A DNA stretch of 64,000 nucleotides from Escherichia coli (GTDB lineage: Bacteria > Pseudomonadota > Gammaproteobacteria > Enterobacterales > Enterobacteriaceae): NCBI RefSeq assembly GCF_009931435.1, contig NZ_CP043414.1. One strand, 5' to 3'. The notes under the pieces are model-generated. The model was not told where the DNA came from and did no database searches. It saw only the letters and a list, made by a program, of their open reading frames with translations. The number at the start of each line of letters is the position of its first letter. Positions within the stretch are counted from its first letter, which is position 1. Below, one piece after another: positions 41,560-43,040 of the stretch. A program made the translations under genes and the position numbers.

Positions 41560-42408
41560 ATGGCGACATACCTTATTGGCGACGTTCATGGTTGTTACGA
41601 TGAACTGATCGCATTGCTGCATAAAGTAGAATTTACCCCTGGGAAAGATACCCTCTGGCTGACAGGCGATCTGGTTGCGCGCGGCCCTGGTTCGCTGGAT
41701 GTTCTGCGCTATGTGAAATCCTTAGGCGACAGCGTACGTCTGGTGCTGGGCAATCACGATCTGCATCTGCTGGCGGTATTCGCCGGGATCAGCCGCAATA
41801 AACCGAAAGATCGCCTGACACCGCTGCTGGAAGCGCCGGATGCCGACGAGCTGCTTAACTGGCTGCGTCGCCAGCCTTTGCTGCAAATCGACGAAGAGAA
41901 AAAGCTGGTAATGGCCCACGCAGGGATCACGCCGCAGTGGGATCTGCAGACCGCCAAAGAGTGCGCACGCGATGTAGAAGCGGTGCTGTCGAGCGACTCC
42001 TATCCCTTCTTTCTCGACGCTATGTACGGCGATATGCCAAATAACTGGTCACCGGAATTGCGGGGGTTGGGAAGACTGCGTTTTATCACCAACGCCTTTA
42101 CCCGTATGCGTTTTTGCTTCCCGAACGGTCAACTGGATATGTACAGCAAAGAATCGCCGGAAGAAGCCCCTGCCCCACTGAAACCGTGGTTTGCGATTCC
42201 TGGCCCCGTCGCTGAAGAGTACAGCATCGCCTTTGGTCACTGGGCATCGCTGGAGGGCAAAGGTACGCCGGAAGGTATTTACGCGCTGGATACCGGCTGC
42301 TGCTGGGGGGGGACATTAACCTGCCTGCGCTGGGAAGATAAACAGTATTTTGTCCAGCCGTCGAACCGGCATAAGGATTTGGGCGAAGGAGAGGCGGTCG
42401 CGTCTTAA
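41560..42408 (+). CDS. apaH: Bis(5'-nucleosyl)-tetraphosphatase (symmetrical) ApaH
   Basis: 282-aa ORF; metallophosphatase motifs GDVHG, GDLVARG, GNHD; 3' end overlaps ccdB stop convergently. Confidence 0.95.
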
Positions 42409-42719
42409 ATCCCGTCGAGCATAAAATCTAATGCTCCTTTAATCAAAGTTCGGTGCGCGCTGGCATCGCAAAATTTCGTTCCCAGCGTGTTAACTGGAAC
42501 AGTTGCAGTCTCATGCGTCATGAGCACATAATCTTTGCCGTCTACCAGTAAAAGGATTGGGTTAAGTCGTTCTGGTGGGCGAATATGGCTAAATCGTTCA
42601 ATAGGTGTTAATGGAATAACGATACGGCGATTAATCTCACCAATAATGTCGCTGGTAACATCGATAACAAAGGGAAACGCGGCGTTCCTGCCGCGACTGC
42701 GGTATACCGTAAATTGCAT
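42405..42719 (-). CDS. ccdB: CcdB-family toxin (gyrase poison homolog), chromosomal
   Basis: 104-aa ORF; MQFTVY...DVTSDII...VIPL...ATVPV...MLDGI pattern resembles plasmid F CcdB; 3-nt gap after ccdA. Confidence 0.8.
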
Positions 42720-42721
42720 CG

Positions 42722-42955
42722 CTAGAAGCTCCGGTACTCATCAGAGAAACATCCGGTTTCATCAGCCAATTGGTTTAACGCAGCGATAGCTTCTGCGTTC
42801 TCTTCACGCCAACGTGTTGCTGCATGTTTTTTAAGTTCAGCATTGAGCGCAACCGTAAGGGTGGCGCTCATATTTAAGCCTGCATCACGAGCGCGATTGA
42901 CTAACTCACGGTCGACGGTGACGGTCACACTTTGTGTGGTACGTTTTGCAGTCAT
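42722..42955 (-). CDS. ccdA: CcdA-family antitoxin, chromosomal
   Basis: 77-aa ORF; N-terminal VTVTVD ribbon-helix-helix region and W-x-E-N motif as in CcdA; immediately upstream of ccdB. Confidence 0.8.
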   Translation of the reverse strand: MTAKRTTQSVTVTVDRELVNRARDAGLNMSATLTVALNAELKKHAATRWREENAEAIAALNQLADETGCFSDEYRSF

Positions 42956-43040
42956 GATATCGTGCTCCTGTACAATTTATACGTCTAGTATACACGGATA
43001 TCTGCACGTATCAGTGATGCCGGAATTCTAATATACAAAC
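42956..43040 (-). promoter_or_regulatory. Probable ccdAB promoter/operator region
   Basis: 85-nt spacer between folA stop and ccdA start containing TATAAAT and palindromic GTATAC/GTATA elements. Confidence 0.35.

Follow-up and report, generated by a model that had tools for sequence, protein, structure and literature searches.

The chromosomal toxin-antitoxin (TA) system ccdO157 of Escherichia coli O157:H7 EDL933 (Wilbaux et al. 2007; Mine et al. 2009) is the closest described relative of the ccd pair reported here. More distant are the ccd operon of plasmid F and the chromosomal CcdB of Vibrio fischeri. In E. coli, ccdO157 forms a genomic islet by itself and is degenerating (PMC2654758), chromosomal ccdB is under neutral evolution (PMC3920263), and studies of gyrase inhibition have included the ccdO157 CcdB, the O157 toxin being described as somewhat attenuated (PMC10886550). 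The spacer between folA and apaH is plastic, with a repetitive extragenic palindrome (REP) there in about half of isolates (PMC3184786, PMC7167474), and is 77 bp long in K-12 and HS (PMC7232551). The pair reported here lies between folA and apaH in a 64,000-nucleotide stretch of E. coli contig NZ_CP043414.1 (assembly GCF_009931435.1), hereafter the window. The locus is an intact copy of a ccdO157-type chromosomal ccdAB, and as such ordinary and already described. The full explanation that we favor, and hold to be very probable, is an intact type II TA operon on a low-GC islet of ~620 bp that is fixed in the folA-apaH spacer. Its features are the following:

42405..42719, minus strand: ccdB, toxin of the CcdB family and putative gyrase poison (PF01845 over its full length; PDB 2kmt, 1vub)
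42722..42955, minus strand: ccdA, antitoxin of the CcdA family and putative autorepressor (PF07362; PDB 2adl)
42956..43040, minus strand: folA-ccdA spacer, 85 nt, putative ccd promoter/operator (promoter scan, repeats, hexamer count)
42410..43031, no strand: extent of the ccd islet relative to K-12, ~622 bp (alignment with K-12, EDL933, and 2020CK-00188)
41560..42408, plus strand: apaH flank, 282 aa, metallophosphoesterase by Pfam (also compared with K-12)
43041..43520, minus strand: folA flank, 159 aa, dihydrofolate reductase (DHFR) by Pfam, protein identical to K-12 DHFR

Both ccd genes are intact and start with ATG (ccdA, 77 aa; ccdB, 104 aa). The Shine-Dalgarno (SD) motif AGGAG (42969-42965) is located 9 nt upstream of the ccdA start, and the ccdA stop (TAG) is separated from the ATG of ccdB by 2 nt. 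An antitoxin gene directly upstream of its toxin gene, on one strand and with tight coupling, is the layout of a type II TA operon. RefSeq places the gene boundaries of EDL933 and other genomes at the same points. At its other end, ccdB converges on apaH, where the two coding sequences overlap by 4 nt (42405-42408) and the stop codons (TTA/TAA) have 2 nt in common. The preliminary description of this DNA had proposed a CcdA-like protein of 77 aa and a CcdB-like protein of 104 aa downstream of folA in the same orientation, with ccdB overlapping the convergent apaH 3′ end by 4 nt; the open reading frames (ORFs), the Pfam and PDB matches, and the coordinates bear this out. The GC content of the islet is 46.6%, compared to 53% for folA and 56% for apaH. 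Two plus-strand ORFs (42535-42789 and 42843-43031) were dismissed as genes, as they are antisense to well-supported coding sequences and have no support.

The PF01845 profile was matched by CcdB along all 101 positions (E value 8.9e-32; 109.8 bits, above the cutoff of 28.6). CcdA matched positions 2-71 of the 71-position profile PF07362 (1.3e-26; 93.1 bits, above the cutoff of 22.4), whose family combines an N-terminal ribbon-helix-helix with a C-terminal CcdB-binding tail. Of the solved chains, V. fischeri CcdB is the nearest to CcdB by sequence (2kmt, 2.9e-17; further structures 3jsc and 4ely); it aligned end to end, as did F CcdB (1vub, 1.2e-10). CcdA aligned with F CcdA (2adl, 9e-6) over residues 8-75 and is identical to WP_000125566.1, a RefSeq "CcdA family antitoxin." The fold of both proteins is established by these alignments to solved chains. 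Because the Pfam matches are full-length and high-scoring, the assignment of the ORFs to the CcdB and CcdA families, as judged from these profiles, is not due to chance. The alternative, that they are chance frames in a long intergenic region or were mis-assigned to the Ccd family, has a negligible probability: it is already refuted by the Pfam and PDB matches, and the gene boundaries are kept across species.

Alignment with the plasmid F proteins gave identities of 36% for CcdB and 29% for CcdA. Plasmid F ccd and the window pair have in common both protein families, the antitoxin-first operon with tight coupling, the C-terminal Gly-Ile and the DII motif of CcdB, and GTATAC-type palindromes in the promoter region. 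They differ in that the window pair is chromosomal and F ccd plasmid-borne, that W99 of F CcdB is replaced by Asp in the window, and that the F operator comprises 113 bp with eight sites, whereas the window spacer comprises 85 nt with three GTATAC-like sites. V. fischeri CcdB is similar in length to window CcdB and likewise has no Trp at the W99 position of F, but it comes from another genus and genomic context and falls far short of the identities observed among Escherichia copies.

The likeness to ccdO157 of EDL933 includes the folA-apaH site, the gene order (rsmA-apaG-apaH / ccdB-ccdA-folA-kefC), the gene lengths, the spacer, and the 4-nt overlap with apaH. CcdA is 100% identical in the two loci, and CcdB is identical at 99/104 positions (95%), with the substitutions G10S, E28V, H45R, D63E, and T78A from the window to EDL933; the ccd DNA is 98.2% identical. 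Neither the DII motif (24-26) nor the C-terminal helix contains any of the five substitutions, and the EDL933 states S10 and V28 are the derived ones among the sampled loci. Apart from these substitutions, the window differs from ccdO157 in its backbone, which is that of a divergent Escherichia lineage. In a record labelled EDL933 (NZ_CP124740.1), DHFR has the change W47R when compared with the window, K-12, and the remaining strains analysed.

In K-12 MG1655, ccd is absent and the folA-apaH spacer is only 77 bp, in agreement with the earlier statement that a chromosomal ccd is present in O157 and missing from K-12. The K-12 spacer contains a REP-like palindrome, and the ccd islet (~42410-43031, 622 bp, with a folA-side edge uncertain by ~15 nt owing to a MAFFT alignment artefact) sits in place of the REP-bearing core of this spacer. 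The MAFFT match of a part of the K-12 spacer to the ccdB start (common AATTTACGG) was taken as that artefact. The sequence TTTAA, which holds both stop codons, is also present at the apaH stop of K-12, and its occurrence in both places puts the ccdB stop at the very edge of the islet. The C-terminus of apaH reads ...GEGEAVAS in the window (282 aa) and ...GEAAAS in K-12 (280 aa). This 6-nt indel in the last apaH codons goes with the ccd-bearing form in all ccd-positive loci examined.

The islet is widespread. A megablast search with a 551-bp ccd segment matched 2024 of 5426 complete E. coli genomes (37%), and each copy is chromosomal, single, and annotated as "CcdB family protein," "CcdA family antitoxin," and apaH. 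The exact window CcdB is present in 391 blocks of a public assembly collection. A GTDB scan with one genome per species, seeded on exact peptides and hence bounding near-identical relatives only, found close CcdB relatives in two further species representatives: E. albertii NBRC 107761 (91%) and SCPM-O-B-8794, which is labelled E. coli but is a second non-coli Escherichia species representative, with a locus 93.8% identical to the window. The E. albertii ccd also lies between folA and apaH (positions 2760-3306 of its locus), and the SCPM-O-B-8794 locus, in which ccd is intact (locus positions 3001-3312), aligns with the window end to end, flanking genes included. Both genes are inactivated in the E. 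albertii type strain: ccdA lacks 1 nt near codon 70 and reads TGG in place of its TAG stop, and the ccdB start is ATA in place of ATG. With carriers in many E. coli backgrounds (37% of the complete genomes), in E. albertii, and in another Escherichia species, the islet is not an O157 marker, and the earlier reading of ccd as a lineage marker is too strong. The islet is patchy, old, often decayed, and not specific to O157. A folA-apaH PCR or typing marker would thus not identify O157, and the use of the same site in E. albertii and another Escherichia species means that the insertion is old or has been repeatedly exchanged.

Decay of the pair was followed in 13 other E. coli loci, a non-random choice. 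In 6 of these 13 loci ccdB is broken or missing: it is frameshifted in SF-166 and MS1679, has an internal stop in Z1002, is cut off at codon 95 in Ecol_AZ146 and EC-16-526, and is reduced to its last 71 nt in 2017-02-2CC. Five of the six loci retain an intact ccdA, and 2017-02-2CC has none; wherever the gene is present among the 13, it is intact. Between folA and apaH of 2017-02-2CC (locus positions 4001-4731), ccdA and most of ccdB have given way to a gene with the annotation "IS1096 element passenger TnpR family protein," which lies next to the ccdB remnant. In this small sample, the ratio of nonsynonymous to synonymous change (pN/pS) relative to outgroups was 0.08-0.09 for ccdA and 0.27-0.63 for ccdB, and ccdB within E. 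coli had 12 nonsynonymous compared to 7 synonymous polymorphic codons. This agrees, on a small scale, with published work in which the toxin decays and the antitoxin next to it is conserved.

Synonymous divergence was lower in the islet than in its flanks, although the synonymous counts are small and total divergence in ccdAB is only modestly below that of the flanks. Relative to E. albertii, 13/128 sites differed in ccdAB (0.10) and 90/304 in folA and apaH (0.30; Fisher p = 7e-6); relative to SCPM-O-B-8794, the values were 19/127 (0.15) and 76/306 (0.25; p = 0.03). The difference relative to EDL933 (5/127 and 29/308) was not significant. Tentatively, exchange of the islet among Escherichia species may have continued after they split, with breakpoints close to the islet borders; alternatively, selection may act on its synonymous sites. 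The latter option fits the synonymous-site constraint in F ccdA, in its operon context, that deep mutational scanning reports (PMC9555053).

Near-identical ccd copies were found neither on true plasmids in the plasmid collection nor in the phage search. The only plasmid-collection record with >75% CcdB identity is 834 kb long and also carries apaH, and is therefore a chromosomal fragment. As all 2024 E. coli copies are chromosomal, the islet lacks the plasmid or mobile carriage, with ability to stabilise, of a plasmid addiction module. Among ccd systems on Escherichia plasmids, the F type (~36% identity) clearly predominates, with thousands of records. Plasmid CcdB relatives closer than F are known from Hafnia alvei (74%; for example NZ_CP015380.1) and Klebsiella aerogenes (69%), and relatives at ~59% occur on plasmids of E. 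coli, Salmonella, Citrobacter, and Enterobacter. Since such closer plasmid relatives exist, a plasmid ancestry of this ccd subfamily is plausible.

The 85-nt spacer between folA and ccdA contains a sigma-70-like promoter on the ccd strand, as predicted by the promoter scan, with the -35 element CTGATA (43014-43009), 16 nt of separation, and the -10 element TATACT (42992-42987). A perfect GTATAC palindrome (42993-42988) overlaps this predicted -10 element, and two further copies match at five of six positions (GTATAT, 43036-43031; GTATAA, 42982-42977). Two GTATAC-like copies lie within the 11-nt direct repeats TGTATACTAGA / TGTATATTAGA of the spacer. The count of GTATAC-like hexamers is three in 91 nt, where 0.25 would be expected; just 0.33% of stretches of this size contain as many. 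In F ccd, GTATAC palindromes are the core of the 113-bp, eight-site operator, which a CcdA2-CcdB2 chain binds in a ratio-dependent manner (PMC5389731). Because the motif is enriched in the spacer and is the core of the F operator, we infer, reasonably in our view, that ccd is autoregulated via these GTATAC-like sites.

No known RNA element was found by an Rfam scan of 41000-44500 at E <= 1; its sole hit was a meaningless miRNA match outside the locus. A terminator scan of both strands between ccdB and apaH found none. RNA folding 3′ of the apaH stop on the plus strand was better than that of shuffled sequences (z = -2.46), with no U-run, and folding 3′ of the ccdB stop and in the spacer was unremarkable. 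The apaH and ccdAB transcripts probably overlap. Within ccdB, 25 nt from its start, a GC-rich hairpin CGCGGC/GCCGCG followed by TTTCCCTTTG (42695-42678, minus strand) has a terminator-like score. This hairpin with its T-rich tail was dismissed as a conserved attenuator and is probably fortuitous, because the G10S codon change of EDL933 disrupts the stem.

By homology, CcdB would be a dimeric poison of the GyrA subunit of DNA gyrase. CcdA would neutralise CcdB and is presumably Lon-labile, as the chromosomal ccd antitoxin is said to be in Wilbaux 2007, and CcdA and CcdB together would repress their own promoter in the folA-ccdA spacer through the GTATAC-like sites. Resistance to gyrase poisoning by CcdB is conferred by GyrA R462C; the window is collinear with 22-93 kb of K-12, and gyrA lies outside it. 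A labile antitoxin beside a stable toxin is a type II trait, and the lability has been described for F CcdA (PMC5389731).

Compared to the commonest E. coli allele in the sample, the CcdB of the window carries R45H, E63D, and A78T, which are conservative changes. The three positions align to D44, S60, and V75 of F CcdB, which are not known to be gyrase-contact residues in the mutational and structural work on that protein. The DII motif and the C-terminal helix, including Gly103-Ile104, are the same as in EDL933. Because the ORF, the start, and the coupling to ccdA are intact, and because the DII motif and C-terminal helix are those of EDL933, it is likely that the window CcdB is an active toxin. 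The alternative is a decayed module, in which the full-length ccdB has been inactivated by missense changes and only the antitoxin/repressor is functional. It would fit the relaxed constraint on ccdB (pN/pS about 0.3-0.7), the many E. coli copies in which ccdB is visibly broken, and the three changes relative to the commonest sampled allele; in Mine et al. 2009, ~29% of variants reportedly combined an active antitoxin with an inactive toxin. However, the three changes are not only conservative but also lie in a loop and in beta-strands, at a distance from both the DII motif and the C-terminal helix, the ccdB ORF, start, SD, and 2-nt coupling to ccdA are all in place, the exact CcdB is common in public assemblies, and the related allele of 2020CK-00188 also has H45 and T78. 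A decayed toxin in the window is therefore rather doubtful.

As to what the pair does for its host, it most likely has no essential role and would be a selfish remnant, with the antitoxin conserved and the toxin drifting and often lost. The preliminary description had considered an addiction or persistence module. The addiction part is contradicted by reviews, as ccdO157 can neither stabilise an unstable plasmid nor prevent large deletions (PMC2654758) and is unable to mediate post-segregational killing (PSK) (PMC7326226); persistence would be no more than a candidate role of the window allele. A stress, persistence, or drug-tolerance module that benefits the host and is kept by selection is unlikely. 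Both genes are intact in a divergent lineage, which favors such a module, as does the work on ccdAB in drug tolerance cited below, but 63% of complete E. coli genomes lack the islet, ccdB is often pseudogenised with ccdA kept, the E. albertii type strain has neither gene in working form, and the neutral evolution of chromosomal ccdB (PMC3920263) speaks against selection by the host. Still less probable, to the point of being a marginal option, is anti-addiction, in which chromosomal CcdA guards against PSK by incoming plasmids with a ccd of the same subfamily. Such protection was demonstrated with the Erwinia chrysanthemi chromosomal ccd (cited in PMC10305079), and the idea would agree with the strong conservation of ccdA even beside a dead ccdB and with plasmid CcdBs at 59-74% identity, much closer than the F type. 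Nevertheless, conservation of ccdA is expected anyway, as its loss before that of ccdB is lethal, and the F toxin, whose type is the commonest on Escherichia plasmids, evades the O157 chromosomal antitoxin (PMC3920263). The plasmid antitoxin in turn neutralises the chromosomal toxin (PMC10305079). The statement that chromosomal CcdA protects against F CcdB (PMC10886550) conflicts with the reported evasion (PMC3920263). Where plasmids bring in a ccd of this subfamily, the source strain of the window may show tolerance or some interaction. Wilbaux 2007 reportedly also conflicts with protection against F CcdB by the chromosomal CcdA.

Several points weigh against the explanation that we favor, that is, an intact ccdO157-type operon with an active toxin and no essential host role. 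W99, G100, and I101 of F CcdB are needed for gyrase poisoning; G103 and I104 of the window CcdB are conserved, and the residue aligned to W99 is D102. This Asp is found in all O157-type CcdB proteins compared, that of EDL933 included, and V. fischeri CcdB has Thr at the same position. The toxicity of this allele, with H45, D63, and T78 relative to the common E. coli allele, is a prediction from sequence, and the sample for the ratio of nonsynonymous to synonymous substitution rates (dN/dS) is small, with non-randomly chosen loci. Our functional statements on ccdO157 derive from reviews. For the Asp of chromosomal CcdB at the W99-equivalent position, the effect is given as unknown in the literature (PMC7232551). 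Finally, Gupta 2017 is cited as reporting a contribution of chromosomal ccdAB to drug tolerance (PMC7326226, PMC10886550), with some protection during antibiotic treatment (PMC7326226), which speaks against the absence of a role. Beyond annotation, the locus has little meaning: it is a textbook chromosomal TA islet of the kind whose toxin decays while its antitoxin is kept, and the window adds one more intact ccd allele, in a divergent Escherichia lineage.

This divergence extends over the backbone of the window. Window regions are ~96-97% identical to most complete E. coli genomes and 95.2-96.9% identical to K-12, and the segments 10000-18000 and 38000-48000 are at most 98.6% identical to any of the 5426 complete E. 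coli genomes. Over 6.3 kb, the window is 99.97% identical to a draft contig of GCA_030511265.1. Taken from these identities, the backbone suggests a rarely sequenced or cryptic Escherichia lineage.

Further differences from K-12 were observed outside the ccd locus. At 46201-46573, the K-12 13.1-kb caiF-caiTABCDE-fixABCX-yaaU block (K-12 34031-47143) is absent, and carB therefore adjoins kefF. The 372 nt found at the junction instead include an ORF for a DUF903 lipoprotein-like protein of 78 aa (46205-46438, minus strand, Pfam 8.8e-17), and the closest complete genome, 2020CK-00188, matches the window across it in one piece. At 13911-13952, setA (K-12 77621-78799) is missing, leaving ~40 nt between the sgrS/sgrR side and leuD. 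An insert relative to K-12 of 1.3 kb (53301-54613) lies between rihC and ispH; its single ORF (53334-54542, minus strand) encodes 402 aa, begins with a hydrophobic stretch resembling a signal peptide, and matches nothing in Pfam. A 1.43-kb insert relative to K-12 between araD and polB (25574-27005) contains three small ORFs:

25620-26063, minus strand: ORF of 147 aa
26060-26407, minus strand: ORF of 115 aa
26420-26752, minus strand: ORF of 110 aa

A Pfam search of the 115-aa and 110-aa ORFs gave no match. The 147-aa ORF resembles SMI1/KNR4 (SUKH-1) weakly, at an E value of 5e-4 that does not reach the Pfam cutoff, and the insert looks like an orphan immunity-protein cluster.

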